Positions 9,096 through 46,178 of a DNA stretch of 64,000 nucleotides are shown here, in pieces (position 1 is the first letter of the stretch; each line of letters opens with the position of its first letter). The DNA comes from a virus. Taxonomy: Duplodnaviria > Caudoviricetes. Below the pieces are notes generated by a model. That model saw nothing but the letters and a program-made list of their open reading frames with translations, searched no databases and had not been told where the DNA came from. The position numbers and the translations under genes are program-made. The stretch covers positions 64,847 to 128,846 of IMG/VR virus record IMGVR_UViG_3300044842_000325, one strand, 5' to 3'.

Positions 9096-9177
9096 GCTTT
9101 TTCCTTTTTTATACAAATGTTGTTTAATTTGTTTGCGCAAACAAACTGTTATTGATCACTAACCTGGGTGATCATTT

Positions 9178-10578: not shown

Positions 10579-11883
10579 ATGAAACGACATCTGCAAGCGC
10601 CCGAACCGCAACCGATCCCGACGCCGGTCCTGTCGGTGGAAGAAGAAGCGATTCTGGCGGACGAGCACAACGAAGCCAGTCAGGCCCTCGACAACGCTAC
10701 GGCGGACGCTGACCGCATCACCGAAGTGGCCGATGTGGCCCAGGACGCAGTCCAGGTCGTGGACATGACGCCGGAAGTCGGTCAAGTCGAACAAGAACTC
10801 GTGGGGGCCGTGGGTGACATGGCTGTGGCGGGTACTGATGCTGACCCGACCGACATCATCAACATCCCGGCTGCGCCGACCGAAGGCGAAGAGCCGAAGC
10901 CGGAAGGGCTGAGCGTCGAAGGAATCGCCAGCACCCTGAAGTCGATCTGGGACGCCATCATCACCGCCATCAAGAACATGTGGGTCGGCTTCAAGCACTG
11001 GCTGACCACCTACTTCGCCACGCTGGAACAGAACAAGAAGCACGCTGAAAAGCTGATCGAGCGTCTGTCCGGCATGAAGGGTTACCTGGCCAACGATGGC
11101 GCCATGCTGACCAGCTCGATGACCGACATCTTCCACTACAGCGGCCGCAGCTTCATCGATCTGTTCAACACCGCTGGTCGCCAAGAACACGACTTCAACG
11201 CCTACGTGCTGGACACCACCAAGAACCAACACGGCCTGATGATCCCGATCGGCGATGGCATGGTGCAAGCCTACAACGCTTACCAGGGTGAAGACATCGC
11301 TGACATCGGCCAAGTCGTCGACGTACTGAGCACCCGCTTCGTCGACTACATGAAGCGCCTGAACCTGCAACCGGGCAAGGGCGACAAATGGGAAACCAAA
11401 CCGATCGCGCAGATGAAGGTCGTGGCCGATGGTTACAGCGACAGGATCACCGATCCCGCGCAATCGATCGAAACCAAGATCGCGATGCTGTCGAAGATCC
11501 GTTTCTCGGTCGACCAAGACACGAGCTTCGGTAGCAACAAGATCATCAGCATGAAGCTGGACGTCACCGCCGACAAGCTGCTCGAATATGTCAAGGAACG
11601 CCTGGTTTTCATCGACGAACTGCTGAAGTTCAAGGCTGACCAGTTCAAGGCACTGGAAGACAAGGCCACGGCTGTCCAAGGTGCCTGCGATGCGATGCTC
11701 AAACGCATCAAAGAAGACAACAAAGAAGGCACGGCTTTCGCTAAACGCCTGATGCCGCTCGCGACCGCGTACTCGCAGTGGGCGACCCAGCCGACCGGCA
11801 AGCTGCTGCACGTGGCTGCGCGCCACAACAAGTTCTGGCTGTCGCTGTTCGAAATGGCAACGAATAACTTCCGCGCCGCATAA
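10579..11883 (+). CDS. Internal head / ejection protein with an acidic propeptide
   Basis: Acidic ~115-aa N-terminus ending at GLSVE|G (S/A/G-X-E prohead-protease motif), followed by the amphipathic helix IASTLKSIWDAIITAIKNMW typical of phiKZ-like head paralogs. Confidence 0.7.
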   Translation: MKRHLQAPEPQPIPTPVLSVEEEAILADEHNEASQALDNATADADRITEVADVAQDAVQVVDMTPEVGQVEQELVGAVGDMAVAGTDADPTDIINIPAAPTEGEEPKPEGLSVEGIASTLKSIWDAIITAIKNMWVGFKHWLTTYFATLEQNKKHAEKLIERLSGMKGYLANDGAMLTSSMTDIFHYSGRSFIDLFNTAGRQEHDFNAYVLDTTKNQHGLMIPIGDGMVQAYNAYQGEDIADIGQVVDVLSTRFVDYMKRLNLQPGKGDKWETKPIAQMKVVADGYSDRITDPAQSIETKIAMLSKIRFSVDQDTSFGSNKIISMKLDVTADKLLEYVKERLVFIDELLKFKADQFKALEDKATAVQGACDAMLKRIKEDNKEGTAFAKRLMPLATAYSQWATQPTGKLLHVAARHNKFWLSLFEMATNNFRAA

Positions 11884-11900
11884 TCATCCAACGATGACAT

Positions 11901-11937
11901 CTCTCGTTCCCGCTTTTGCGGGAACGAGAGTATGCCG
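11901..11937. terminator. Perfect 13-bp hairpin + TATGCCG between convergent genes
   Basis: CTCTCGTTCCCGC-TTTT-GCGGGAACGAGAG-TATGCCG. Confidence 0.7.
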
Positions 11938-14082
11938 TCAATAGTAGTCCATGGCCAGTTGGCTCAAGTCATCATGATTGAAATAGAATCCAATGGTTTC
12001 CAAAATCAAGTAAAACATTGCTGTTGCTTTTTGTACGATCTTGCGCACATCCACCGCCATCATGATCTCGTCCGGAATCCCTTTGGCAGAAACGATCGGC
12101 AAAGGGAGCTGCAATGACGTGATCTTATCGCGGTTATTCGTTTCTAGCCAACGGCGCATGGCTTTGGCAATGTCTTGGTCAGGCATCTTCTCCAGCCAGT
12201 TATTGGTCTTGGTTTTGCTATCCAATTCCAAACTGACATAGATCGCCTTGTAAGGTGGCGGCGGGATCATCCCATACTTTTGACCGAATACATCGTTCCA
12301 CATGCCGTACTGTTTATACGTCGAGGTTTCTTCGCCGTTCTTGTACGCTGCCGGGTCTTTTACGGTACTGAGTTTCAGGAATTTGAATTCCCCTTTACGG
12401 ATCGACTCAACGATACTGCGTTCCAGGTCAGCCACTTCCTTGACATACTTCATGGCGCTGATACTGCCTTTGGCCATGATGGTGTTCATGATGTCGAGCA
12501 TCATGTTCTCAGCCTGCGCAACAATCGCTTTTGGTGCATTGGAAGACTTGAGGTGAACCCCTTTGATTTCCTTCTTGAGTTCTTTCTTGATGTTACCTTC
12601 TTGGCAGCTGATCTGGGCAAAGTAGTGTTTACCGAGTTGGGTCAGAACAAACACGTCGAACTTGTATTCATTCTTCATTTCAATGGTAAACGCGTGATCC
12701 CGGCCAATCCCCACGTTGGCGGACATCTTGGCTAGAATGTGGATGATCGATTGCGATGCCAAAAAGATCATTGAAGCGCACACGGCGTCGTAGGTCGCAT
12801 CGAACTTGACTTGCTTGCAATACCAGAGAATCCAGTCTTGCGTGGTGAAGATGGTCGAGTCCGTGTCCGACACCAACACCACCCGGCGCAAGCTGTGTGG
12901 GAACATCGCGATCGAAGCAGGCACATTGTCCGTGGCCCAGAACGTACGAATCAGGTCGGCATACGCCCACATGACGTTGGCGATGTTTTCGGTTTGTGCT
13001 GCCACGATCGCGTAACCGACAGGATTATTCTTGATAATCTCGTCGATCGACTTGCCCTTGGTGATCTCGGGCTGGAGTTGCTTGGCTAAGTTGAAGAAGT
13101 CTTCGGGCCACTTTTTGATGGTTTCGGCGGGAGTGGGATCAGGTACATCCACCCGTTGAATAAGGCGTCCCATAAAAGTGCGTACAAAATCATCGTTGAA
13201 TTCCTTCAGTTGGTACATGTCACCCGTGTACACAAAGGCAGCACGTTGGATTGGCGTGAGATGATCGATCAAGTCACGGATCTTGGCGTACGACGGCTTA
13301 TGATTCCAATACAGCTTGGCCGAACGGTACACAACATTGAAGGTTTCTTCAGCGGTCGGGTAATGCAGGTTGTAACGGGTCATCACGTGCTCGACTGCCG
13401 CCATGTCGGTGTGGGCAATGATCGACACGATGTTGTTGCGCGTAATGTCATACGACCAGTAGTGACGATTACTGGCCAAGAAGCGTTCGTTGTTGGCATT
13501 CCCGTATGCCGAGGTTTGTCGACAAGAAGATGTGAGGGACGAGTGGCCGGTCTTGTTGGTGATCGGGTTGTGTTCACTCACCATGGCGCCCGACACGGCG
13601 TTGTTCGCCAACTTTTCCGTGGTTTGCTTACCACTGAAGAAGCGGTAGTTAAAGCTGCTCTCGCCCTCCTCTTGACCCGCTTTAAACATCGCTTTCTTTG
13701 CTACGCCACGCGACTTCACGTTGTCGTATTGGAATTTCGACAGAGGGGACAGGCGCACCTTGGGATTGTGATACGTAGTGAACGTGGGAGCGTAGATCTG
13801 TTCTTCCCCGAGGATCGTGCCGATGTATTCCGACATCGGGATCACCCCGTCTTCCCGGTCACCGGTATCGAAATCGCGTTCGAGGAACACGGCGTTGGGG
13901 TCTTGAATCGGGAACTCGCCGGTAGGGGAGAGTTGCTGCTTGACGAAGCGCATGGCTTCTTCGTACGAAATCCCGGCCATGATTTGCAGATGAGCTGCAT
14001 GTTGATGCATGGCGTGACGAATCGGGTTGATATCCCGTTTGTAATCTTCAGCTGGAGAAATAAACGGACTGTTCTTAGACAT
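11938..14082 (-). CDS. Family B DNA polymerase, polymerase domain (phiKZ gp50-like)
   Basis: Motifs SDTDST, KLANNAVSG and KGVHLK; 714 aa. No evident proofreading domain, consistent with the split PolB of phiKZ-like phages. Confidence 0.88.
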   Translation of the reverse strand: MSKNSPFISPAEDYKRDINPIRHAMHQHAAHLQIMAGISYEEAMRFVKQQLSPTGEFPIQDPNAVFLERDFDTGDREDGVIPMSEYIGTILGEEQIYAPTFTTYHNPKVRLSPLSKFQYDNVKSRGVAKKAMFKAGQEEGESSFNYRFFSGKQTTEKLANNAVSGAMVSEHNPITNKTGHSSLTSSCRQTSAYGNANNERFLASNRHYWSYDITRNNIVSIIAHTDMAAVEHVMTRYNLHYPTAEETFNVVYRSAKLYWNHKPSYAKIRDLIDHLTPIQRAAFVYTGDMYQLKEFNDDFVRTFMGRLIQRVDVPDPTPAETIKKWPEDFFNLAKQLQPEITKGKSIDEIIKNNPVGYAIVAAQTENIANVMWAYADLIRTFWATDNVPASIAMFPHSLRRVVLVSDTDSTIFTTQDWILWYCKQVKFDATYDAVCASMIFLASQSIIHILAKMSANVGIGRDHAFTIEMKNEYKFDVFVLTQLGKHYFAQISCQEGNIKKELKKEIKGVHLKSSNAPKAIVAQAENMMLDIMNTIMAKGSISAMKYVKEVADLERSIVESIRKGEFKFLKLSTVKDPAAYKNGEETSTYKQYGMWNDVFGQKYGMIPPPPYKAIYVSLELDSKTKTNNWLEKMPDQDIAKAMRRWLETNNRDKITSLQLPLPIVSAKGIPDEIMMAVDVRKIVQKATAMFYLILETIGFYFNHDDLSQLAMDYY

Positions 14083-14144: not shown

Positions 14145-14185
14145 CGGCATAAAAACCATCCAAGAGCCCGAAGGCCCTTGGATGG
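14145..14185 (-). terminator. Hairpin + TTTTTATGCCG terminator closing the putative ncRNA
   Basis: CCATCCAAG...CTTGGATGG stem followed on the minus strand by TTTTTATGCCG. Confidence 0.65.
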
Positions 14186-23820: not shown

Positions 23821-23867
23821 GCGCATAACGCCCCTCTCTACCCGCGAGGGTAGAGAGGGGTATGCCG
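23821..23867. terminator. Perfect 13-bp hairpin with TATG motifs on both flanks between convergent genes
   Basis: GCGCATA...CCCCTCTCTACCC-GCGA-GGGTAGAGAGGGG-TATGCCG. Confidence 0.7.
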
Positions 23868-24089
23868 TTAGGCAAGCAGAAGTTCACGGGTGCGGTACAA
23901 CTGTTCCCGCTGCTGCTTCAAGCGGTCAGCGGAAACTTGGTTGACAAAAATCACGGCGCTCTCGATCGAGCAAGCACATTTCTCTTGGTAATGGCGAATG
24001 GCGTTTTCACGCTTACCTTGACCAATGAGCAGGTTAACTTCGTCACGCATGGTGTCAGTGGAAGTCATGTGTTTCTGAGAGCGGGCCAT
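23868..24089 (-). CDS. Small protein resembling the ribosomal L7/L12 C-terminal domain
   Basis: GKRENAIRHYQEKCACSIESAVIFV resembles the G-K-I-x-A-I-K-x-Y-R...L-x-E-A-K-x-x-V pattern. GAGGAG RBS. Confidence 0.5.
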   Translation of the reverse strand: MARSQKHMTSTDTMRDEVNLLIGQGKRENAIRHYQEKCACSIESAVIFVNQVSADRLKQQREQLYRTRELLLA

Positions 24090-24106
24090 GATAACTCCTC
24101 GTGAGG

Positions 24107-24784
24107 TTAAGCCGCCGGATATCCTCCAGCATGCTGACCAGGTTGACGACGCGAACCATCCACGTCGTTTTTCTTGAAGAAAGGTTTCTTGCCACCTTCC
24201 TTCTTCACATCATGGGAGGTCAACCGCGGTTGAATCGGTTTGGCGGTGGGATGCTGGGCACGACGACGCGGCGGCAGGCCATCGTCCACCACGATACCAG
24301 CGGCGCGGTCGAGTGCAGCTTGTTCACTGATGTCACGCGGGAACGATTCCGACGTGATCCAGGCCAGCAGATCGGGTTCACCGCGGAACTGCTGGCCCTT
24401 GCGTTTGAAGAAACGCATGGCCATGCGGATGAAACTGCCCGTGGTGTGCAGTTTCGGTACCGGCCCCGTGACCACACCTTTGCCGCTGACCTGATACTCC
24501 TTCTCACGACCGTGCATCACGATGACACCGTACGCTGTGCCGCGCAGCAGGATGCGATTGTTCAGATGTTGTTTCTTTTCATCCGGATGCTTGGCGTGGA
24601 TCTTGGCGAACTCGCCGGGTTTCAGGATCACACGGTTTTCCGGATGATCAACGATCGGCATGAAGTTCATCCCGTCCTGGATGCGCAGTCCCTTCGCCAT
24701 GAAATACGGCCGGAAGGCGATCACGGTCTCAGCTGCTTCGTATTGGCGAAAGAAGTATGTGGCGATTTGTGCGTCGGTATTCAT
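24107..24784 (-). CDS. Hypothetical protein with a basic C-terminal tail
   Basis: ATG 24784 follows the shared leader CATACCAACAAAGAAAGGGATCACC. Confidence 0.65.
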   Translation of the reverse strand: MNTDAQIATYFFRQYEAAETVIAFRPYFMAKGLRIQDGMNFMPIVDHPENRVILKPGEFAKIHAKHPDEKKQHLNNRILLRGTAYGVIVMHGREKEYQVSGKGVVTGPVPKLHTTGSFIRMAMRFFKRKGQQFRGEPDLLAWITSESFPRDISEQAALDRAAGIVVDDGLPPRRRAQHPTAKPIQPRLTSHDVKKEGGKKPFFKKNDVDGSRRQPGQHAGGYPAA

Positions 24785-24839
24785 GGTGATCCCTTTCTTT
24801 GTTGGTATGGAGTTATTGACAATGTTGCAGTTGGACATT

Positions 24840-25088
24840 CTATTCCTCTCCGGGAATATTTTTTAACGGTGGTAAAAACGGGGACCGATGCCGCGCTAAA
24901 CGCACGGGATCTTGAAAGGTACAACGAAGAGAAGAATGATGGGTCTTCTGCAAGGTGACCCGGGGGCGGCGCAGCGGTTGCGGAATCCGTGGGGTAGGCG
25001 ACTTCGTAGTCTTGGTCACGGGCATTACTCGCCTCGCCCGTTTGATACGGAGTAAAAGAATCAGTCCGGCAGCAATCAATGGAATCAT
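24840..25088 (-). CDS. Small basic protein with an N-terminal hydrophobic segment
   Basis: AGGAG RBS; MIPLIAAGLILLLRIKRARR. Confidence 0.5.
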   Translation of the reverse strand: MIPLIAAGLILLLRIKRARRVMPVTKTTKSPTPRIPQPLRRPRVTLQKTHHSSLRCTFQDPVRLARHRSPFLPPLKNIPGEE

Positions 25089-25144
25089 GGTACTGCTCCT
25101 AGCGTTAGAGATAAATCCCATCTATTTACCTATAACGCCAGGCG

Positions 25145-25372
25145 CTAAAGGTCAAGATCAATGTTTCTTTCAGTGGCCATCTTCTTGAGTTCTTCCATCG
25201 CTCCCAGAATCTCATCGGCTTCATGGGCATAGTTACAGCAATCGAACAACACCGTGATGGCATCAATTTCGTCTTGGTTAGTGGCTGCTTCAAATAAACG
25301 CAGCGCTATACGAGAAGCTTGGCGACGCAATCGCAGCATCTCGATTTGTTTCTGCAGGCTCTTCAAATCCAC
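25145..25372 (-). CDS. Small helical hypothetical protein
   Basis: GTG 25372 after GAGGG; coiled-coil-like sequence. Confidence 0.55.
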   Translation of the reverse strand: MDLKSLQKQIEMLRLRRQASRIALRLFEAATNQDEIDAITVLFDCCNYAHEADEILGAMEELKKMATERNIDLDL

Positions 25373-25412
25373 GGACAGATCCCTCTTGTTGTAAAGAAAA
25401 AAATGCAAAACA

Positions 25413-25445
25413 CATAGAGAGCTGGGGGCAACCCAGCTCTCTATG
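25413..25445 (-). terminator. 14-bp hairpin terminating the membrane-protein operon
   Basis: CATAGAGAGCTGGG-GGCAA-CCCAGCTCTCTATG with T-rich flanks. Confidence 0.7.
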
Positions 25446-25457
25446 GTTTTTCACGGC

Positions 25458-25595
25458 TTAATTAAAGTTGCCGGCTGCAACGTTCGCGGCGACAAACAAC
25501 GCCAGCGCGATCATGGCAGACACCAGAGCTTGGGTCGCCGTGGGATATTGAAAGCGCTTAGGCGCCCGCGGGTACAGCTTCAGCGTTTGCTTCAC
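25458..25595 (-). CDS. 45-aa single-pass membrane peptide (not in the ORF track)
   Basis: GGAGG-N6-GTG; MKQTLKLYPRAPKRFQYPTATQALVSAMIALALFVAANVAAGNFN*. The stop lies just before the terminator. Confidence 0.55.
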   Translation of the reverse strand: MKQTLKLYPRAPKRFQYPTATQALVSAMIALALFVAANVAAGNFN

Positions 25596-26277
25596 CGGTT
25601 GCCTCCGTAGCGGTAGTGGTGCGGTTGAACAGGTTCTTGACCCAGGTATAGGCCGACACGAACCAGCCTTTGACCGTCACCCCGGCGTTGACGAACCATT
25701 CGCCGATGCGGGTGAAGACCGTGCTACCTGCGTCCTCGACCGGCACTTCCGTGGCGGTGTCAGCGGCAGCGGTGTCGGTCATCCGGGACACAGAGGATAC
25801 TGCAGTGTTGATATTTTTCCCACGGAGCCAGAACCACAGGCCCGCGGCGCCGGCGAAGATGGTCAGGGCACCAGCCACGGCCTTCTTCTTGTTTTCACCG
25901 ACCCAGGCTTTGAAGCGAGCCCACAGGCTCGGCTTCTCGTTGGCGGCTGCCAGGCCGGCGGCGGCTTCACCGGTCAGCTTGGCAGCTTCGCTGTTGATCT
26001 TGGCCAAGCCGACCAGGATCTTGGCGCCGACGCCGTCGGCTGCTGCGCCGGTAGCGCTGGCTTCCGGTTCGATTTCCAGTTCGGTGGTGTCGAGGCCGAT
26101 CGAGGCGATCAGGTTTTTGATCTCGGTTTCCAGCTTGGCGCGAGCTTCGCCGGTGGCCGATGCCATTTCGATGCGCTTGGTGGTGATCTGGTCCTTGACA
26201 ACGCGGAAAGCGTGGTTCAGTTCTTTGTCGGTCGGGGCTTTCTTCAGTGCTTCGGATTGGTTGTTGATCGAGTTCAT
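25558..26277 (-). CDS. Membrane protein with a coiled-coil N-terminus, one TM helix and amphipathic helices
   Basis: ATG 26277 after AAAGGA. TM AVAGALTIFAGAAGLWFWL; amphipathic SLWARFKAWV and VKGWFVSAYTWVKNLF. Confidence 0.75.
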   Translation of the reverse strand: MNSINNQSEALKKAPTDKELNHAFRVVKDQITTKRIEMASATGEARAKLETEIKNLIASIGLDTTELEIEPEASATGAAADGVGAKILVGLAKINSEAAKLTGEAAAGLAAANEKPSLWARFKAWVGENKKKAVAGALTIFAGAAGLWFWLRGKNINTAVSSVSRMTDTAAADTATEVPVEDAGSTVFTRIGEWFVNAGVTVKGWFVSAYTWVKNLFNRTTTATEATGEANAEAVPAGA

Positions 26278-26342
26278 GATTCGTTTCCTTTTGTTAATTT
26301 GAAAGAGGTGCTTCGGGATAGGATTTAATACGGTTTCACAGG

Positions 26343-26699
26343 TCACGGTGTAGTGGGTTCAGCCCGCTTGGCAGCGAAGACGCTGAGCGTCAAACCGAAC
26401 ACCGCCAGAACGAAGAGGATCGGCAGCAACGCCACGAACGCCACTACCACCTGTTGGATCAGCCAGACGAGCAGTACGAAACCGACTGCGTTCAGCACTG
26501 CATCGCCCAGATACGCAAACGGTGACTGGTCGCGGATGACGGCGGTCTCCTTGCCGTCGACGAACACCGTCGACGGTTTAAAGTTGTCGTGCATGCGACG
26601 CATTTCAATCGCCTGTTGCTTGGCATCGGACCACGATTTCGGTTCGAGACGCAAGATGTTGGCGACGAACACCGAGAGAGTGTCGAAGAATTGCTTCAT
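26343..26699 (-). CDS. Small membrane protein (operon member)
   Basis: MKQFFDTL N-terminus, long hydrophobic hairpin, AAGGAGG RBS. Confidence 0.75.
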   Translation of the reverse strand: MKQFFDTLSVFVANILRLEPKSWSDAKQQAIEMRRMHDNFKPSTVFVDGKETAVIRDQSPFAYLGDAVLNAVGFVLLVWLIQQVVVAFVALLPILFVLAVFGLTLSVFAAKRAEPTTP

Positions 26700-26995
26700 G
26701 CAGATACCTCCTTAAGTTGAAGTACCACACCGCCGACGATTTGCACACCCACAATCGCGAGGTCCACAAGGAACAGCATCGCGATTAAAGGTGGCACGCC
26801 GATGGATGTCGTGGCACACATGACAAAGAAAAGCCACACCAGCAGCCGCCAGAACGCAAAGGCCAATTGGCCCAAACCGATCGGCTTAGCCTGCAGGGTG
26901 GTGGCCACCAACGACACCACCGGCGCCACAATGGCACCGGCGATGACTTTGGCAGCGAAGAACAATTGCTTGATGAAACCAAACAGCTTACGCAT
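26696..26995 (-). CDS. Small membrane protein (operon member)
   Basis: MRKLFGFIKQLFF N-terminus, 2-3 hydrophobic segments, ATGA overlap with the next gene. Confidence 0.75.
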   Translation of the reverse strand: MRKLFGFIKQLFFAAKVIAGAIVAPVVSLVATTLQAKPIGLGQLAFAFWRLLVWLFFVMCATTSIGVPPLIAMLFLVDLAIVGVQIVGGVVLQLKEVSA

Positions 26996-27034
26996 GATCT
27001 CTCCAAAAGGGTGGATAAAAGCCCACCCCTGAAG

Positions 27035-27307
27035 TCAGGTGTAGGCGTTAGCAGTTTGCTGATAGATGTTACTGACGATGGTGAGGATGTCACCGAAGGC
27101 CATGATGCGTAACGTCAGCAAGATCGCTGTCGCGGCTGGGAACAGCCAAGCGCAGATGAAAAATCCAGTGTGCAGTACGAGGCGTCCCACGTACCGCTTG
27201 TCTTCTTCATCCACTTGCGCAGCGCACGTATGACGGCATAACCGTACCAGGCCACCTACCGTGTGCCGGTAGATAGCGCTGGCTAAGGTTTTGATGAATT
27301 GCCACAT
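27035..27307 (-). CDS. Small membrane protein (operon member)
   Basis: MWQFIKTL N-terminus, hydrophobic hairpin. Confidence 0.7.
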   Translation of the reverse strand: MWQFIKTLASAIYRHTVGGLVRLCRHTCAAQVDEEDKRYVGRLVLHTGFFICAWLFPAATAILLTLRIMAFGDILTIVSNIYQQTANAYT

Positions 27308-27313
27308 GTCGGC

Positions 27314-27673
27314 TTAAGCCGCAACCGGAGTTGCTTCTTCAGCTTTGACGTTGTCGAGGTTGTCGCCCGTGGCCTTGATCGATGCCAGTACCAAGGCCAG
27401 ACCGAGACCACCCGTGATCAGCACGAAGCCAACGTACACGAGCGAGAGGAACAGAGACAACCAGAACCACACCCATGCCACCGTGACCAGCAGTGCCGGT
27501 ACGGCGAAGAACCATGAAGCGATGATGACCGCGCGCGAGACGGCATTGAGCATCGTCAGGATCTTCTGGCCCCAGTCCATGGAGAGGATGTCTTTCACTT
27601 CGACGATCGGGGCGACGAAGATACCGTAGACGAACTTGGCAGCGCCTACGAGAAAGTTTTTGATAAATTCCAT
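27314..27673 (-). CDS. Small membrane protein (operon member)
   Basis: MEFIKNFL N-terminus, ~50-residue hydrophobic stretch, AAGGAG RBS. Confidence 0.75.
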   Translation of the reverse strand: MEFIKNFLVGAAKFVYGIFVAPIVEVKDILSMDWGQKILTMLNAVSRAVIIASWFFAVPALLVTVAWVWFWLSLFLSLVYVGFVLITGGLGLALVLASIKATGDNLDNVKAEEATPVAA

Positions 27674-27691
27674 AATGGAATCTCCTTTGAA

Positions 27692-28063
27692 TTAATTGGG
27701 TTCGGCGACGATCTCGGCAGCCCTTTGGGTGTTGATCGCTTTGATCACGTCGTAGACCACATAACCCACGGCGCCGATCGCGACCACGTTAGCCACCAAA
27801 GGCGGCAACAGCAGGCCGAACAACAGAGTCAATCCTGCGATCGACAAAATGATGCCGGCGGTAATATAGATCATCGCCCCCAACATCAGCAGACCGCCCA
27901 GGATCACACGGCCGACCATCTTCCAGGTCCAGTCAGTATCGGCATCCTGATACACGAAAATGTTGAGCGGTTCCATGTATACGGTAGCCATGTCGAGGGC
28001 TTTTGTGATCGGTGTAGCAATCCAACCGACGACGCGGTTGAACCATTTCTTGATGAAGTTCAT
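27692..28063 (-). CDS. Small membrane protein (operon member)
   Basis: MNFIKKWF N-terminus, ~50-residue hydrophobic stretch. Confidence 0.75.
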   Translation of the reverse strand: MNFIKKWFNRVVGWIATPITKALDMATVYMEPLNIFVYQDADTDWTWKMVGRVILGGLLMLGAMIYITAGIILSIAGLTLLFGLLLPPLVANVVAIGAVGYVVYDVIKAINTQRAAEIVAEPN

Positions 28064-28107
28064 GGAAATATCCTTGAAGGGGAGGGAGCGTACGCTCCCT
28101 GTAATGA

Positions 28108-28530
28108 TTAAGCAGCAGCGGCAGCGGTGAAAGCAACGTCTTCGACTTCGACGACGGCGGCCACGTTCGAACGGAATGCGTCGACCAGACGAGCGGTGAT
28201 TTCAGCACGAGCAATAGCTGCACCGAAATCTTCACCGAACATGTAAGCGACCGGGATAGCCAGCAGACCCAGGATCGGGCCCAGCAGGAACGAGGCCACG
28301 ACGCCGATGGTGTAACCGATCGCGAAAGCGACGAAGAAGCCCGAGACAAATGCGCCAGCTTTGCACACGGCGCCATAGAGCGTCTTGGCGAAGTCGTCCT
28401 TGGCACGGCCTTCCGCCAGCAGGCGATCGCCGTAGACGTTCAGCTGAGCGATCTTGCGAGCGACGTAATCGCGAGCGAAGCAATAGCCATGTTTGATGTT
28501 GTTCCAGAGATTGTCGAAGAATTTGTTCAT
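28108..28530 (-). CDS. Small membrane protein (operon member)
   Basis: MNKFFDNLW N-terminus, Gly/Ala-rich hydrophobic hairpin. Confidence 0.75.
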   Translation of the reverse strand: MNKFFDNLWNNIKHGYCFARDYVARKIAQLNVYGDRLLAEGRAKDDFAKTLYGAVCKAGAFVSGFFVAFAIGYTIGVVASFLLGPILGLLAIPVAYMFGEDFGAAIARAEITARLVDAFRSNVAAVVEVEDVAFTAAAAA

Positions 28531-28570
28531 GATAGTTTCCTTGTTGTTGATTATGAATCAGAAAGAGGGA

Positions 28571-28987
28571 TTAAGCGAACACCGGGCCAGCCATACGGCC
28601 GAACATTTGTTCCAGTTCACGGTGAGCACGTTCGAAACGATATTGCGTGTTAACGATGTGGATACCGAAAGCGCTACCGACTGCAACACTCACGAGGTAG
28701 CCGATGACCGGACCTGCCAGCACCGTTACGATAAATGCCACCGCGACCGTGACCAGCATGGCTGGCAGCAGCACGCAGAAGAAGAAACCACCGCAGTACG
28801 ACATGAAACCCCACACGCGGTACAGGAACGTCTGGAAGGACGACGGGGCGCCAGCATCACCAGCACGACGAGCATGGTCACCCATGTTGGCCTTGGTGGC
28901 GTACTTGATGGCGTAGGAGGTGACGCGAGCAGCAGTCATTGCCAGCGTATCAACGATACGGTGGTACAGCTTTTTGATGAATTCCAT
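28571..28987 (-). CDS. Small membrane protein (operon member)
   Basis: MEFIKKLY N-terminus, hydrophobic hairpin. Confidence 0.75.
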   Translation of the reverse strand: MEFIKKLYHRIVDTLAMTAARVTSYAIKYATKANMGDHARRAGDAGAPSSFQTFLYRVWGFMSYCGGFFFCVLLPAMLVTVAVAFIVTVLAGPVIGYLVSVAVGSAFGIHIVNTQYRFERAHRELEQMFGRMAGPVFA

Positions 28988-29035
28988 GATTGATCCTTGT
29001 TGTTGGTTATGGATTGGACTACAGGGTGTTGAGGA

Positions 29036-29404
29036 TTAAGCAGCCTTGCGCTTAGCGCGGTTGTGTTTCGGAGCTTTGTAGGTCTTGTTGTTCATGGCGC
29101 GCTCGATGCGAACCAGAGCAGCTTCGTCTTGTTCACGGGCAGCTTGGAAAGCTTCCGACAGATCGTAATTACGGAAACGAGCCAGACCCATGATGCTGTT
29201 GAACAGCGCTTGGATACGCTGCTCTTTGGCGGCGTTGTCTTCAGCAGCAACTTCAGCAGCGACATTGGTTTCGACAGCGACTTCAGCGGCCGGAGCCACT
29301 TGAGCGACCGGAGCCGGAGCTTCGATCTTGGCTTCAGCTTTGCTGCTGAACAGGTTGGAGAAGAACGACTTGACTTTGTTCCACAGGGTTTTGATGAAGT
29401 TCAT
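29036..29404 (-). CDS. Ala-rich protein with an N-terminal amphipathic helix and no TM segment; first gene of the operon
   Basis: MNFIKTLWNKVKSFFSNLF; GCT/GAA-rich codons typical of highly expressed genes. Confidence 0.75.
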   Translation of the reverse strand: MNFIKTLWNKVKSFFSNLFSSKAEAKIEAPAPVAQVAPAAEVAVETNVAAEVAAEDNAAKEQRIQALFNSIMGLARFRNYDLSEAFQAAREQDEAALVRIERAMNNKTYKAPKHNRAKRKAA

Positions 29405-29471
29405 GATGAGATCCTTTTGAAATTGTTGGTTATCAAGGGTGGAAAGAGGGTATTCCTTTTCCTATTCACCA

Positions 29472-29503
29472 CTGTTATATGGTTTTGAAAAATTCTAGCG
29501 CCA
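29472..29503 (-). promoter_or_regulatory. Putative early promoter of the membrane-protein operon
   Basis: TGGCGCTAGAATTTTTC-AAAAC-CATATAACAG: variant core, same spacing as the other copies. Confidence 0.65.
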
Positions 29504-29516
29504 TATCTAAACATTC

Positions 29517-29546
29517 CTCAGGTATGGGCAAATACCCATACCTGAG
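29517..29546 (-). terminator. 12-bp hairpin
   Basis: CTCAGGTATGGG-caaata-CCCATACCTGAG directly after a gene stop. Confidence 0.6.
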
Positions 29547-29552
29547 AATCTG

Positions 29553-29876
29553 TTACAGCCTGATGCCGAAGTACATATAGAACTTAACGATCAGCGTATG
29601 TTGCTTATAGCCAGCTTGCGGATCGTAACCGATGTATTCGAACCGGCGATGAGAAGTGTGCGTGTCAACCGTACCATCGTCCCATTTGTCGATCAGCGAC
29701 ATTCCGCCAAACATTGTTTTGCCGTCCAGATGGAACAACATTTCTTTGGTGGCTTCCGTAGGGCGAAATAGCACCACTTTGAAAATCCGTTCGTCACTAC
29801 CAACGTCCTGCTCTTCGAATGTGATGATCGATTCTGCTTCCAGACGAATTGGCTCGTCGATCGTAGTTTGTTTCAT
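29553..29876 (-). CDS. Hypothetical protein
   Basis: ATG 29876 after AAGGA; 107 aa (the ORF-track extension overlaps the next gene). Confidence 0.6.
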   Translation of the reverse strand: MKQTTIDEPIRLEAESIITFEEQDVGSDERIFKVVLFRPTEATKEMLFHLDGKTMFGGMSLIDKWDDGTVDTHTSHRRFEYIGYDPQAGYKQHTLIVKFYMYFGIRL

Positions 29877-29889
29877 GCGTTGTCCTTGT

Positions 29890-30450
29890 TCAGTAAAGGT
29901 AAGGTAAGCTGATGTGAGTTTTCTTACCTTGGCATTTGTTCCAGGTGTCGAGTGTACCGCCATCAGCCGGGACATCGCCTTCACCAAACGTATACGCCAG
30001 CATTTCTTCCATCTGCGCGACTTTGGAGTTACGGGCGAACATGCCGCCAGCGCTGGGTGAACTGGGCTCTTCTTCGATGCGGATCGGGCTATTCTCCACT
30101 TCCCAGTATTGCCGCACCACTTCTCCAATCTGCCCCAGCGTATCACGTTCAATGATGCGACCGAAATTGCGGTGGTAGTAATTGGCGATGCCGCCAGCGC
30201 TCTTCCACCCGTCTTCCACAAATTGACCGTTCTTGAAAGGTGCTGGAAGATAGAGCGAAATCTCACCCGCATGACCGAACAGGAACATCGATACAGCGAG
30301 ATGGTCCGCCCACGCTGCGCCACCTGAGACCACGTGTGCTCCTCGGGGAACCCGACTGTAAGCATCCCGCAACATCCACCGCCATAATGCCACCGACATG
30401 GGTTTGCTTTTGTCACGTCCCGCTGTACCGATAATCGCGATTCGTGTCAT
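29890..30450 (-). CDS. SLOG superfamily (SMF/DprA/LOG, YspA-like) nucleotide-binding protein
   Basis: Motifs IAIIGTAGR, VVSGGAAWAD, ARN and GGTLDT. Confidence 0.75.
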   Translation of the reverse strand: MTRIAIIGTAGRDKSKPMSVALWRWMLRDAYSRVPRGAHVVSGGAAWADHLAVSMFLFGHAGEISLYLPAPFKNGQFVEDGWKSAGGIANYYHRNFGRIIERDTLGQIGEVVRQYWEVENSPIRIEEEPSSPSAGGMFARNSKVAQMEEMLAYTFGEGDVPADGGTLDTWNKCQGKKTHISLPYLY

Positions 30451-30666
30451 TTATTTCACCTTGACTTTGCTGAAGTTGTAATGTTCATCACACGACATAT
30501 TGCCGTTGTTCCAGTGCACAAGTAGCCAGTTATCGTCGTGTTGAATCTTTTTGTCGATCTTCTTAGAAATTTTTCCCGGAGTTCCTTTGGTTGATATTAA
30601 CTCCATCCCAACACGAATCTCATCGTAAGGGACGTCAGAGAGATTCTTACCGGAATGATCATTCAT
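30451..30666 (-). CDS. Small beta-rich protein, paralog 3 of a triplet
   Basis: MNDHSGKNLSDVPYDEIRVGM. Confidence 0.75.
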   Translation of the reverse strand: MNDHSGKNLSDVPYDEIRVGMELISTKGTPGKISKKIDKKIQHDDNWLLVHWNNGNMSCDEHYNFSKVKVK

Positions 30667-30878
30667 TATTTTATCCTTACATGTTTGAATGTTTTTTGTA
30701 GATCGAGTTCGATGGTGTGATTGTCGTAAACAATCTTTAACGCTTCGAGTTTATGACCATGCACCTTTTCGAATAGATCCGTGATTCTCCCATTACCCCG
30801 GTAAGAAACTACGGCCATTCCCACGAAGAGATCTGCGAAAGGAACATCGGAAAGCTTCTTACCAGAGTGCTGGTTCAT
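30666..30878 (-). CDS. Small beta-rich protein, paralog 2 of a triplet
   Basis: MNQHSGKKLSDVPFADLFVGM. Confidence 0.75.
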   Translation of the reverse strand: MNQHSGKKLSDVPFADLFVGMAVVSYRGNGRITDLFEKVHGHKLEALKIVYDNHTIELDLQKTFKHVRIK

Positions 30879-30880
30879 GG

Positions 30881-31099
30881 TTATTTGATCTTTACATGCT
30901 CGAAGATGGATTGTTGACCACTTTCGGTAACTTTGTTTTGGTACACGATTTTCACGCCGTTGATCTTTTTACCGCGTGACTCGGTTACCAGGTCAGCAAT
31001 AACACCATCGTTATTAGAACGGAAGTCTACAACCTCCATTCCTACGGCGAGATCAATAAAAGGTACTTCACTGAGTTTTTTACCAGAGTGTTGATTCAT
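30881..31099 (-). CDS. Small beta-rich protein, paralog 1 of a triplet
   Basis: MNQHSGKKLSEVPFIDLAVGM. Confidence 0.75.
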   Translation of the reverse strand: MNQHSGKKLSEVPFIDLAVGMEVVDFRSNNDGVIADLVTESRGKKINGVKIVYQNKVTESGQQSIFEHVKIK

Positions 31100-31101
31100 G
31101 A

Positions 31102-31908
31102 TTAACCTTTCTTATCAATGGCGCGCTGAGAATAAGCGCAGCCGTTGAGAAATTCACGCAGATTGATAGCGTTGTCGTCGCTTCTGTTGTTGGTAAACCA
31201 GACTGGTTTGTGACCGAACCACTCCGAGTCCGAGAAAGCATAGGACTCTTCGTTGAACTTGATGGCTTCTTCGGAGAGTTGGACATTTTCGAAGATGACC
31301 CAGCCGTCCTTGGCGTCGCCGATCATGTCGATCACGGGCTGGACGAATTCCTGTTGCCGCTTGACTTGAGCCAGCATCCTTTCCAGATCCGCTTGTGGTG
31401 TCTTCTCACCGCAATCCATGATGAAACCGCCATTCTCTTTGGCCTTGGCGATGTCGCGTTCCAGACTAGCGATGTAGTCGAACCCGTCACGGATAGTGTC
31501 TTGCACTTCCGACAGGTTGTAATCGAAATAGGGCTGTTCGAAACGTGGGGTAGCTTGATATTCCTCGTACGCTTTGAGGAAGTCTGCCGAGTTCAAGGCA
31601 GGTTTGCTCGCAGTATGCGGGAATCCGCGCAGCGACTGGAGTCGTTCACGGATCGTGTTGTTGATTTCGTCAAAGCGTTCTTGACTCAGGTCGAAGCGGA
31701 TTTTGTCAACTTCACTGAGTGGCGCCATTAACAGATCTGCCGCCATCCATTCGTTGTTGTGCTTGACGCGCCGGTCAGCGCAGGTGAGCGGTGGCGGGTC
31801 CATGTGGATGCCAGACAAATCGCTTTGTTGCAAAGGACGGACCCCGTACCACAGGCCGCCTTCAAATTTAACGATTGCGCAGTGACGTTCATCAAGTTCG
31901 TAGATCAT
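31102..31908 (-). CDS. Hypothetical early protein
   Basis: 268 aa, AAGGA RBS with the shared leader, downstream of an early promoter. Confidence 0.7.
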   Translation of the reverse strand: MIYELDERHCAIVKFEGGLWYGVRPLQQSDLSGIHMDPPPLTCADRRVKHNNEWMAADLLMAPLSEVDKIRFDLSQERFDEINNTIRERLQSLRGFPHTASKPALNSADFLKAYEEYQATPRFEQPYFDYNLSEVQDTIRDGFDYIASLERDIAKAKENGGFIMDCGEKTPQADLERMLAQVKRQQEFVQPVIDMIGDAKDGWVIFENVQLSEEAIKFNEESYAFSDSEWFGHKPVWFTNNRSDDNAINLREFLNGCAYSQRAIDKKG

Positions 31909-33489: not shown

Positions 33490-33505
33490 TCCCTACTTCC
33501 TGTCC

Positions 33506-33540
33506 GCCTCGCTGGGTTCGCCCAGCGGGGTTTTATGCCG
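33506..33540 (+). terminator. UUCG hairpin + TTTTATGCCG
   Basis: CCTCGCTGGG-TTCG-CCCAGCGGGG-TTTTATGCCG. Confidence 0.7.
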
Positions 33541-35263: not shown

Positions 35264-35300
35264 CTCCCTCTACCCCACCGGGTAGAGGGAGCGTATGCCG
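35264..35300. terminator. 12-bp hairpin + TATGCCG between convergent genes
   Basis: CTCCCTCTACCC-CACC-GGGTAGAGGGAG-CG-TATGCCG. Confidence 0.7.
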
Positions 35301-37499
35301 TCACCGGTAGGAGTTTCTTTGGTAACCCATCATTTTCAGGTAGAAGTCGTTGTCGTTAATGGCCGGCGCTTCGTAATTCACGGCGGCGGTTTGACTGCGT
35401 TTCTTCTTCCGTTCTTTGATGTCAGCCAGCAATTGATCAACGCTGGTCAAATCACCTTGCTGGTACACGATGCCTTGGGCGGTTACCCGCAGCTGATGTT
35501 CCAGTTTGGAGGCCAGATACGGATCAGCCGTTTCTTCCAACTGACGGCCGATTTCTTCGATCTGCGCACGAAGTGCTTTCTGCTTTTCCAACGCCATGTA
35601 TTCTTCGTACGTCATCGATTTGTTATCATCGATTTGGGTCATGACGTTTTGGATACCGTACACACCCATGTGTTTACCGTACGAGAGGAACCAATGGCAC
35701 AAGAGCCATGCCACCACCATATCGTCATGCTTACCGGCTTGGTGATCGACACGGTCGTTCTTCTTCACGAGTCCAGCGATCTGTTGGATCAGGCGTTTGT
35801 CGTACACCTTATCCGCACTGCGCTTCGCGGCATTTTGCAGCGTGTTACCGTACAGGTCACTCCGCGCAAAGCGACCACTTGCGGCTGTGCAGAAACCAAA
35901 TGCCGATTTGTTCAGCGTGTACATGCTGTCGTCACGCCGCGACACTGGCAACCGCACGATTTCATAGCGCTCCGGATAGTCATCTTTGTCTTGCACGATC
36001 GTGTTGAAAATCCGTTTGAAAGGATCTTCCCCGAACGATGGCAAGATGCTAAGGAGCATATCGCGCAGTGCTTCACCCGTGGACTTGGTTTCCAATACCA
36101 GCGTCACATTCTTGTTCTCGACCAGATACACCGCGAGCCAGTTACCGAACATGAGGATATTGGTTTCATTGATCGCAGCGGTTGCGACGACATCCAGCGT
36201 ATCGGCATCGAGCCAAACCAGCGCGATATCGTCGTTGTTGTTAGCGGACGAGGGGTCCACCCCCAACACGAGTTTAGCCCGTGACAAATAGTTGGCTAGA
36301 TTCTTCTCATCCACGTTCCACCGGATCATGTACTTCTGATGCGGGAAGACCTGATCGTAGACGAAATCGTTCGCCGAGGCCACGATCCGTTTCAAAAGTT
36401 GCGGCGAAAGCGGATGCGATTCCGTACCCGAAGTCCAGACGTTGAAGTAGTCGCGGTCAGCTGCATCACCCGAGGAGTTCGATTCACGCATCTTCTCCCA
36501 CAGCCACTTGTCGGTAAAGCCGAGTTGACGGTGGCTCATGATGATCGCGATACGGAAGTTACCGCCCGCATTGCGTTCCACAAATTCTTTCAACGCTGCT
36601 TCATTGGGCATGTCAAAGACGTGTTCGCTCCACGGCATCGAACCGAGAATGTAGTTGTCGTAGACGAACTTGCCTTCCGGCGTATCGAGTTTACCGGCCG
36701 TTGTGGTCAGGATGTTGCAGTACGGGGCGCCGACGGATGCAGCCACGTCACGTTTGGCGTTACCTGCGGACAGCAGTGCCGGGATCGAGATGTGCGCATT
36801 ACCGCAGAACGCTGCTTCGTCAATCCAGTTGATCGGGCTACCGAAACCACGACCCACGAGGTTGGCGTCTTTTTCCGAAGCACGTGGCACCCAGGTCTTG
36901 AGTTTGTTGCTGAGCAGGTTAACCGTGATTTCTTCGGTATTGTTGGCGTCGGTGCGTTTGTTGCGCAAGTCCATGTAATCGGGCAACGCATCGAACACCT
37001 TTTTGATGATGTCGATACTTTCCTTACGCAGCTTTTCACCTGCCGTGTACAGGTTAATCAGCGAACCTTCCGACATCACGCACATCAAACACACGATTAA
37101 CTCGTAGATCGTGTACGACTTACCAGTCTGTCGAGGCTGGATCAGGGTGATGGTGATGTGATTGAAGAAACACCACAGCACCGCGATATTACCACGGTTG
37201 GCTTTCATGGGCAGTGGCTGTGAACCACTACCAGCCGGAATGCGTGCCACTTCACGGAAGTAGTACCAAGGATTGATCTTGCACTCGGCAACGATCATGT
37301 CTTTTTCTTCTTGCGTGAGATTGGGCGAATGCGGATCGACGTGTTCCAACAATGGATTGATTAACGCCAACAGAAACATGTGGTTCTTCACCCCCATGCT
37401 TTTGTAGAGTTTGGCCATATACAACCACGACTCGTTCCGCGTCGACAGGTGCGGGATCGCGGTCGGGTAGTAGGCCCAATCTTGTTCGTAGAGGATCAT
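35301..37499 (-). CDS. terL: Terminase large subunit
   Basis: Walker A PRQTGKS, Walker B WIDEAAF, motif III TTTAG, nuclease motifs GVDPS and HDD. Confidence 0.95.
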   Translation of the reverse strand: MILYEQDWAYYPTAIPHLSTRNESWLYMAKLYKSMGVKNHMFLLALINPLLEHVDPHSPNLTQEEKDMIVAECKINPWYYFREVARIPAGSGSQPLPMKANRGNIAVLWCFFNHITITLIQPRQTGKSYTIYELIVCLMCVMSEGSLINLYTAGEKLRKESIDIIKKVFDALPDYMDLRNKRTDANNTEEITVNLLSNKLKTWVPRASEKDANLVGRGFGSPINWIDEAAFCGNAHISIPALLSAGNAKRDVAASVGAPYCNILTTTAGKLDTPEGKFVYDNYILGSMPWSEHVFDMPNEAALKEFVERNAGGNFRIAIIMSHRQLGFTDKWLWEKMRESNSSGDAADRDYFNVWTSGTESHPLSPQLLKRIVASANDFVYDQVFPHQKYMIRWNVDEKNLANYLSRAKLVLGVDPSSANNNDDIALVWLDADTLDVVATAAINETNILMFGNWLAVYLVENKNVTLVLETKSTGEALRDMLLSILPSFGEDPFKRIFNTIVQDKDDYPERYEIVRLPVSRRDDSMYTLNKSAFGFCTAASGRFARSDLYGNTLQNAAKRSADKVYDKRLIQQIAGLVKKNDRVDHQAGKHDDMVVAWLLCHWFLSYGKHMGVYGIQNVMTQIDDNKSMTYEEYMALEKQKALRAQIEEIGRQLEETADPYLASKLEHQLRVTAQGIVYQQGDLTSVDQLLADIKERKKKRSQTAAVNYEAPAINDNDFYLKMMGYQRNSYR

Positions 37500-46139: not shown

Positions 46140-46178
46140 CCTCTCCTTCCCGCTTGGGAAGGAGAGGTAGTTATGCCG
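46140..46178 (+). terminator. 12-bp hairpin + TATGCCG
   Basis: CCTCTCCTTCCC-GCTT-GGGAAGGAGAGG-TAGT-TATGCCG. Confidence 0.7.

Follow-up and report, generated by a model that had tools for sequence, protein, structure and literature searches.

The right half of the 128,846-bp IMG/VR viral contig IMGVR_UViG_3300044842_000325 (a stretch of 64 kb, hereafter the window) was found to carry, on the minus strand between positions 25458 and 29404, a row of ten small genes, here designated g1 to g10 from right to left, most of which are predicted to encode membrane proteins. The contig (completeness ~48% according to CheckV) derives from an uncultured soil virus that is a divergent chimallivirus, i.e. 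a nucleus-forming jumbo phage. All ten open reading frames (ORFs) of a first-pass annotation of the sequence were present, and they are bracketed by a promoter-like element at 29474-29505 (-) and an intrinsic terminator at 25413-25445 (-), so that the single promoter-to-terminator unit proposed at that stage (29503 to 25413) holds. The terminator has a 14-bp stem followed by a T-run, and its stem co-varies in relatives. Upstream of the promoter-like element, a hairpin with a 14-pair stem at 29516-29548 (-) closes the preceding early operon (31908 to 29553), and compensatory changes in its stem were seen in the relative L007.

Eight of the ten products, those of g1 to g8, begin with a similar short helix, here called the tag. 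The g1 gene (29036-29404) encodes a 122-amino-acid (aa) protein in which the tag helix is followed by an acidic linker rich in Ala, Glu, Val and Pro, a small helical domain and a basic tail ending in KAA, without a transmembrane (TM) segment; its AlphaFold2 (AF2) model has a helix at residues 3-24, disorder at 21-52 and a domain at 57-105 with a predicted local distance difference test (pLDDT) score of ~88. In g2 (28571-28987, 138 aa) the tag precedes a predicted charge-free hairpin of 59 residues; this gene is paralogous to g3 over its whole length, and L007 and L014 lack it. The g3 product (28108-28530, 140 aa) combines the tag with a 42-residue hairpin and the C-terminus AAAAA, and its distant relatives P0009 and P0011 retain the tag. 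A 52-residue hairpin follows the tag in g4 (27692-28063, 123 aa), whose orthologues are 53-61% identical. In g5 (27314-27673, 119 aa, C-terminus VAA) the tag runs into a hydrophobic segment, after which comes another hairpin of 52 residues. The g6 gene (27035-27307, 90 aa) specifies the tag, one 24-residue TM segment and a conserved C-terminal segment, and is 82-97% identical in L004 and L008. The tag and three hydrophobic segments make up g7 (26696-26995, 99 aa), the most conserved member of the operon, with 58-92% identity and 43 invariant columns in its alignment. A variant tag with FFD heads g8 (26343-26699, 118 aa), where a soluble part of 60 aa leads to a 44-residue hairpin.

The last two genes lack the N-terminal tag. 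The g9 gene (25558-26277, 239 aa, with an ATG start and an alternative GTG at 26346) encodes a protein with a helical N-terminal half, one TM segment of 19 residues and the C-terminus AGA. In the orthologue alignment this TM segment is flanked by tag-like helices, SLWARFKAWV..KKK before it and W..SAYTWVKNLFNR after it, in line with the first-pass description of internal amphipathic helices around a TM segment. The tenth gene, g10 (25458-25595, 45 aa), encodes a basic N-terminus and one TM segment; it was correctly described as a TM peptide, and its frame and peptide are kept open in L004, L007 and L008 with a GTG or TTG start.

A ribosome-binding site of the AAGGA/GGAG type lies 6-10 nt upstream of nine of the ten genes. 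Three pairs (g5/g6, g7/g8 and g9/g10) are coupled or overlapping: g6 begins 6 nt past the stop codon of g5, to which it appears translationally coupled, g7 and g8 overlap by 4 nt, and g9 and g10 overlap by 38 nt in different frames. The intergenic leaders of g1-g3 are alike. An A/C-rich leader (..AACCAACAAC..AAGGA..) placed just before start codons is common to early genes; examples are at 28064-28107, 28531-28570 and 28988-29035, and it recurs at the distant genome position -61796. A 16-nt perfect palindrome, GGGAGCGTACGCTCCC, was read directly from the sequence at 28084-28099, in the spacer between g3 and g4.

Anchored on its Phe, the tag reads F(33/36)-[ILF]-K(28/36)/D-x-[LFWI]-[WFY]-[NV]-[RK]-[VI]-[KA] across 36 copies from six lineages; for g1-g8 themselves the pattern is F-[ILF]-K-x-[LFW]-[WFY]-N-[KR]-[VI]-K. 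A regular expression for the tag matched nine of the 7633 candidate starts in the 128.8-kb contig, eight of the nine being g1-g8, a proportion that is biased by the expression having been composed after the list in the first-pass annotation was seen. The hydrophobic moment of the g1-g8 tags is 0.46-0.58, above the genome background of 0.33 +/- 0.12, and their net charge is +1 to +4. AF2 also models the tag as helical in g1 and in g1b, an extra member of the operon found in some relatives. The matches of the regular expression, the moment and the charge together confirm for g1-g8 the earlier statement that eight genes start with related amphipathic helices, the calculation of helical moment having been suggested along with it.

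In codons 1-16, non-synonymous changes are outnumbered by synonymous ones and are usually less frequent than in the gene as a whole, which points to selection for the peptide sequence instead of the RNA; a shared RNA element or translational signal was rejected on this ground. A Sec signal peptide was rejected as well, since charges are spread over the whole segment and an h-region is missing from g1-g4, g6 and g8, and so was a capsid-targeting propeptide, against which the TM hairpins and the early-type promoter speak. The tag heads TM proteins and soluble proteins alike (g1, and g1b in relatives). As g1b comes and goes among relatives and g1 carries a small helical domain, the tag seems to be modular, and this fits the idea of an address. 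Thus, the tag is amphipathic and, as judged from the alignments, selected at the protein level and modular, and the proposal that the N-terminal helix is a shared address gains support. A word-based search for longer proteins bearing the tag found none.

The stretches of g2, g3, g4, g5 and g8 (59, 42, 52, 52 and 44 residues, respectively) are free of charge, have a Gly or Pro near the middle and are flanked by KR-rich segments. This is the signature of a tight helical hairpin, predicted to leave both ends on the same, KR-rich side. A second, weaker stretch accompanies the 24-residue one of g6, g7 has stretches of 20 and 27 residues besides a third segment, and g1 has none. The earlier count of seven proteins with stretches of 30-55 residues is thus roughly right, five standing as clear hairpins and g6 and g7 as multi-segment proteins.

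Relationships among the members were analysed with hhalign on orthologue alignments, with reversed-sequence controls. Homology over the full length was found only for g2 and g3 (93%, 107 columns). Homology restricted to the N-terminus joined g1 with g1b (93%, 23 columns) and g2 with g4 (81%, 21 columns), with fainter hints elsewhere. The tags of g1, g2 and g4 were also placed on residues 208-220 of g9, with weak scores. The comparison of profiles thus detects the shared N-terminus and, as the first-pass annotation had it, mostly divergent remainders. The array looks like an old tandem duplication in which the tag is best preserved, or like a set of genes among which the tag has been exchanged.

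The operon was found with the same gene order in L004/L005/L006/L010 (a 272-kb genome with terminal repeats, ChmA shell protein 73% identical), in L007/L009 (ChmA 74%), in L008, in L014 (a 271-kb genome, ChmA 58%) and in the short contigs L018 and L019. At least five related metagenomic chimallivirus lineages with ChmA 58-74% identical therefore carry it, and eight of the ten genes hold their order out to 58% ChmA identity. All operon genes are under purifying selection, the ratio of non-synonymous to synonymous substitution rates (dN/dS) being 0.04-0.5, with values of up to 0.4-0.5 in g3, g4, g5 and g9. As orthologues occur in the same order and show these ratios, the genes are real. The additional gene g1b, encoding the tag and a soluble part of ~155 aa (AF2 model, pLDDT 57), is present in L004, L014 and L019 and absent from the window, L007 and L018, so that it differs even between the close relatives L018 and L019. 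Compared with L008, g6-g9 are 84-97% identical (g6-g10, 80-97%) and have a dS of 0.33-0.50, whereas g3-g5 are 56-59% identical with a dS of 0.8-1.4. This step in identity and dS between g5 and g6 indicates a recombination breakpoint inside the operon, in the area 26996-27313 (g5/g6 to g6/g7), and hence a mosaic structure.

No family was assigned to the ten operon proteins or ten of their neighbours with Pfam and PHROGs, and the ten proteins gave no Pfam match at E <= 1, the reticulon (PF02453) and REEP-Yop1 families included. Megablast and tblastn searches against 50,697 phage records returned no match. A g2+g3 profile run against 1.84 billion proteins recovered the relatives within the clade and otherwise only two chance-like repeat proteins, the ESM Atlas gave only leads below 0.9 for g4, and Foldseek found nothing below E 5 for the g1 model in the PDB. 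The tag motif and the g9 profile were absent from the phages FLC9, LucasX and phiKZ. When phiKZ was scanned over its full genome for small proteins containing hydrophobic stretches of at least 36 charge-free residues, and for neighbours with shared N-termini, only gp76 emerged, and no array. No PHROG family, including Imm, Sp and the other exclusion families, matched below E 0.001, the best hits being at chance level (PADLOC was not searched). As far as these searches reach, the operon proteins are without a homologue in cultured phages, so that the family is invisible to annotation, and the operon is specific to one clade of soil chimalliviruses unless its analogues elsewhere are unrecognisable.

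The promoter-like element has the form GGCGCTAGAA-N10-CCATATAAC with an AT-rich spacer and is a variant of what is presumed to be the early promoter of the virion RNA polymerase in this clade. Reviews describe the early promoters of virion RNA polymerases as AT-rich motifs of ~10 nt upstream of early operons (PMC7598289), and chmA as an early gene (PMC12908238). The 9-mer C[CT]ATAT[CA]AC (the CTATATCAC motif), with AT-rich sequence upstream and often GGCGCTA, was found, each time on the coding strand, before chmA (9188), before the gene at 31102-31908 (31984), at 48145 and also at genome position -4899. The complete relatives G001 and G003 have 11-14 copies of the motif on one strand and 1 on the other (0-2 in the reversed control), and one copy lies ~95 nt before chmA. 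The intergenic stretch 29474-29505 is ~100% conserved in L004 and L007, where coding sequences are only 50-90% identical, and L014 retains the element as GGCGCTAGAA..CTATATACC. Hence the operon is preceded by a conserved, strand-specific motif of this kind, a variant with a GGCGCTA box that the chmA promoter region has as well. The early timing claimed in the first-pass annotation is plausible because the element resembles the strand-specific motif before chmA; what tempers the claim is that the operon has only a two-mismatch variant of it. Early transcription by the virion RNA polymerase is thus probable. The sequence TATGGCG (29499-29505) was also considered as a late TATG promoter of the phiKZ type and was rejected: it falls within the GGCGCTA box that also occurs before chmA, and elsewhere the hairpin+TATGCCGT element acts like one associated with terminators. 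No gene evidently follows the motif copy at 48145, which overlaps a hairpin+TATGGCG element.

Proteins ending in Ala are enriched in the operon, where six of ten do so (KAA, VFA, AAAAA, VAA, VSA and AGA) compared with 11 of 107 in the remainder of the contig (Fisher p = 6e-4), and the orthologues keep these tails. A non-polar C-terminus with final -AA is similar to the ssrA degron, which ClpXP and FtsH recognise. The Ala-rich C-termini therefore suggest short-lived proteins with rapid proteolytic turnover and cytoplasmic C-termini.

A cationic amphipathic helix at the end of a chain, able to tether soluble domains as those of g1 and g1b might be tethered, recalls the membrane-targeting ends of bacterial division and cytoskeletal proteins, namely the C-termini of FtsA and MinD and the N-terminus of MreB. 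The last 14 positions of FtsA_C (PF11983), its membrane-targeting end, scored 14.8 bits (E 0.06) with the g1 tag and 15.9 bits (E 0.026) with the g1b tag of L019, against a cut-off of 27.4 bits, and the tag has the moment, the charge and the modelled helix expected of such a terminal cationic segment. Unlike these helices, with which it is not homologous, the operon tag is N-terminal, sequence-specific over eight paralogues, mostly placed before TM hairpins and phage-encoded.

An in-plane amphipathic helix next to a tight hairpin, with both ends in the cytoplasm, is also the arrangement of reticulon/REEP/Yop1, of flavivirus NS4A, of hepatitis C virus (HCV) NS4B/NS5A and of the bacterial magnetosome proteins MamI and MamL, and viruses employ it in building their replication membranes. 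The likeness is architectural only, without homology: reticulons have two long hydrophobic hairpins with a hydrophilic loop between them, followed by an amphipathic helix, whereas the operon proteins have one hydrophobic stretch each and the helix at the N-terminus. Moreover, their stretches of 42-59 residues suffice to cross the bilayer twice, and a wedge-shaped monotopic hairpin is not needed.

Two further resemblances concern proteins of the virion. The g1-type tag, W-x-x-[VI]-K-x-F-F-x-x-[LI]-F, is similar to PF05017 repeats of tape measure proteins (TMP) and to a conserved amphipathic segment that follows the acidic propeptide in the PF12699 (phiKZ_IP) internal head proteins of this clade. 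As a 25-aa fragment, the g1 tag scored 17.4 bits with the TMP repeat (cut-off 15), whole g1 scored 12.0 bits and g2-g8 gave nothing; instead of tandem copies in a long tape measure, a single copy stands at Met1 of proteins of 90-140 aa. With PF12699, at about positions 106-128, the g1 tag gave E 0.006 and the g1b tag of L019 E 0.024; these correspond to 16.2 and 14.3 bits against a cut-off of 27 over ~390 positions, true members here scoring 35-134 bits. PF12699 proteins and tape measures leave the virion with the DNA, whereas the operon proteins are small, carry TM hairpins and lie behind an early-type promoter, not among virion genes.

Three PF12699 genes are present in the contig. In one of them, G000:C1:31438-32889(-), outside the window (L029-L032), a helix ...EIWKTIKEFFARIF... 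(AAEIWQRIRQFCLEIWKTIKEFFARIFHAAP) lies ~30 residues after an S-L-E site, behind an acidic N-terminal region; it is identical in G003 and has two differences in G001. The S-L-E site looks like the S/A/G-x-E sites at which the prohead protease of phiKZ cleaves. The hhalign comparison of g1-type tags with the internal head protein gave 74% (E 2.7e-5), and the reversed control 3%. Against the link, a hidden Markov model (HMM) of the tag ranks internal head proteins at the top of the non-operon frames with E-values of only 0.45-1.2, and the motif was not found in the internal head proteins of phiKZ itself. The likeness is therefore a lead and not a demonstration. Another PF12699 member, in the window at 10579-11883(+), has a similar helix after an S-V-E site.

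The reading that is given about an even chance of being correct is that of a clade-specific early operon which supplies some ten small proteins to the cytoplasmic face of a lipid bilayer, where a shared helix would capture them. The virion RNA polymerase would transcribe the operon early. The first 13-20 residues of eight members would form the same cationic amphipathic helix, which would emerge first from the ribosome, capture the nascent chain on the membrane and then remain there, serving as in-plane anchor or as a recognition element common to the set. In six or seven members a helical hairpin free of charges would then enter the membrane, its two ends staying cytoplasmic, while g1 (like g1b where relatives have it) would suspend a soluble domain from the helix, and g9 would use internal copies of it on both sides of its single TM segment. 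Within minutes of the start of infection the set would probably act jointly, as a single assembly associated with the inner membrane or with a membrane derived from it.

Several points weigh against this reading. Membrane binding, topology and co-assembly are deduced from sequence, and we infer early timing, turnover and physiological role in a similarly indirect way. The runs containing the locus are two DNA metagenomes from soil or rhizosphere, which may be the source of the contig, with no RNA run listed, and the operon promoter has two mismatches to the CTATATCAC consensus. The variable presence of g2 and g1b, together with the g5/g6 breakpoint, indicates a gene set that is incompletely fixed. 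Beyond the tag, homology is clear for g2 and g3 alone, being weaker for g3-g4 and g5-g7. Last, a generic membrane anchor does not need a tag conserved in sequence, which hints at a protein partner.

The variability of the gene set is better accommodated if the products are inner-membrane effectors acting individually, in superinfection exclusion, in inhibition of membrane-bound abortive infection (Abi) or other defence systems, or in host take-over, for instance by blocking division or transport, with the tag as a generic insertion aid. T4 Imm and Sp and HK97 gp15 are small inner-membrane superinfection-exclusion proteins, early or prophage-encoded. With one or two TM segments and action at the start of infection, they have the profile of small early inner-membrane proteins that is predicted here. 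The leftward region 23868-31908, to which the operon belongs, is made up of ORFans throughout, as is typical of early accessory regions. The different histories of the g1-g5 and g6-g10 halves and the dN/dS of up to 0.4-0.5 (g3, g4, g5 and g9) point in the same direction. However, the retention of eight ordered genes to 58% ChmA identity is unusual for arms-race cargo, and the coupled or overlapping genes suggest a fixed stoichiometry. Known exclusion systems comprise one or two genes, not ten; Imm, Sp and gp15 are single genes without a shared tag or array, and the operon proteins match neither their sequences nor the corresponding PHROGs. Individual effectors are thus possible but doubtful. 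A lysis-timing or holin/antiholin-like cassette, which would equally consist of small proteins with two TM segments and charged cytoplasmic ends, is very improbable in view of the early-type promoter, the number of genes (ten, two of them soluble), the lack of a PHROG holin match and the absence of an adjoining endolysin or spanin.

A more specific destination, the one favoured in the first-pass annotation, would be the early phage infection (EPI) vesicle. Here the tag would be the address of this organelle, and the proteins, made on polysomes attached to the vesicle and captured by its membrane or by injected proteins on it, would remodel, mature or open it so that the genome is handed over to the ChmA shell. 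Polysomes extend from EPI vesicles (10.1101/2023.09.20.558163) and localized translation has been proposed (10.1101/2024.03.24.586471), so that a helix emerging first from the ribosome would favour the nearest membrane; the early-type promoter fits as well, and the channels of the vesicle and the mechanism of the hand-over are unidentified (PMC12908238). Moreover, phiKZ injects its PF12699 members gp93, gp95 and gp97, the first of which is a marker of the early vesicle (10.1101/2024.03.24.586471), and this lends interest to the similarity of the g1-type tag to the helix of this family in the clade. That similarity stays below the Pfam cut-off, with an HMM that is not significant and phiKZ proteins that lack the motif. 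The vesicle itself is reported to arise on injection, out of host lipids and proteins delivered with the genome, when no phage gene has yet been expressed (10.1101/2024.03.24.586471), and it is deemed family-wide, yet by every test applied the module is absent from phiKZ (whole genome), FLC9 and LucasX; the module is thus not a family-wide vesicle component. A vesicle address is accordingly judged somewhat unlikely. That the tag copies the injected internal-head-protein helix as a true address to the EPI vesicle, and that the ten proteins are the machinery of its maturation, opening and hand-over, is distinctly improbable.

The hint at a partner can also be taken further, the tag being mainly a protein-recognition peptide that bundles the members or is read by one partner, such as an insertase or the signal recognition particle (SRP), a chaperone, a protease adaptor or an internal head protein. 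Position-specific conservation (F, K, W/Y, N, K/R) across paralogues and lineages exceeds what amphipathicity needs, and the internal copies in g9, the likeness to an invariant internal-head-protein helix and the Ala tails, if they mark regulated proteolysis, would all agree with such a role. The composition, charge and terminal position of the tag are nevertheless those of known lipid-binding helices, and recognition as its main role is considered unlikely; both roles can coexist.

Nucleus-forming phages begin their infection in a lipid vesicle, and the operon is a conserved, probably early, membrane set in one clade of them. The tag is short, sequence-specific and apparently transplantable, and it occurs on soluble cargo too. 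It would provide a handle on the vesicle if it leads there. If its sequence were also an address copied from the internal head proteins, no earlier targeting signal would be known for an organelle of a bacterial virus, and the operon would be the first phage-made membrane machinery of such an organelle. Should the tag instead lead to the whole inner membrane, it would define an early membrane module of several proteins, new in kind, and a compact membrane tag for bacteria.

Other genes of the window agree with its assignment. The chimallin-like shell protein ChmA is encoded at 7077-9140 (-) (phrog_4795, E 6e-47), and the nearest ChmA of an isolate, that of Burkholderia phage FLC9, is merely 26.6% identical. 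Its start is probably the ATG near 9095, with the ribosome-binding site AAAAAGGAAAAAGC upstream, and not the TTG at 9140 chosen by the ORF finder. Genes for a DNA polymerase (11938-14082), the large terminase (35301-37499) and an RNA polymerase beta-like subunit (55898-57517) were also identified.

In the early operon upstream of g1, three abutting paralogues of ~70 aa, which start with MNxHSGKKLSDVPF..., lie at 30451-31099; the number of copies in relatives is one to three, and one relative has a copy joined to a longer protein (L009 3464-4003). At least 12 GC-rich hairpins of 10-14 bp have TATGCCGT immediately after them. They include those at 11900-11937, 14151-14185, 23830-23867, 33505-33540, 35264-35300 and 46140-46178, and others occur in the left half of the contig. 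Where genes converge, the motif in most pairs directly abuts the stop codon of the gene on the opposite strand, which reads TGA/TAA-CGGCATA-hairpin. From this position at stop codons, the element behaves as a terminator-associated one, although TATG is the core of the phiKZ late promoter.

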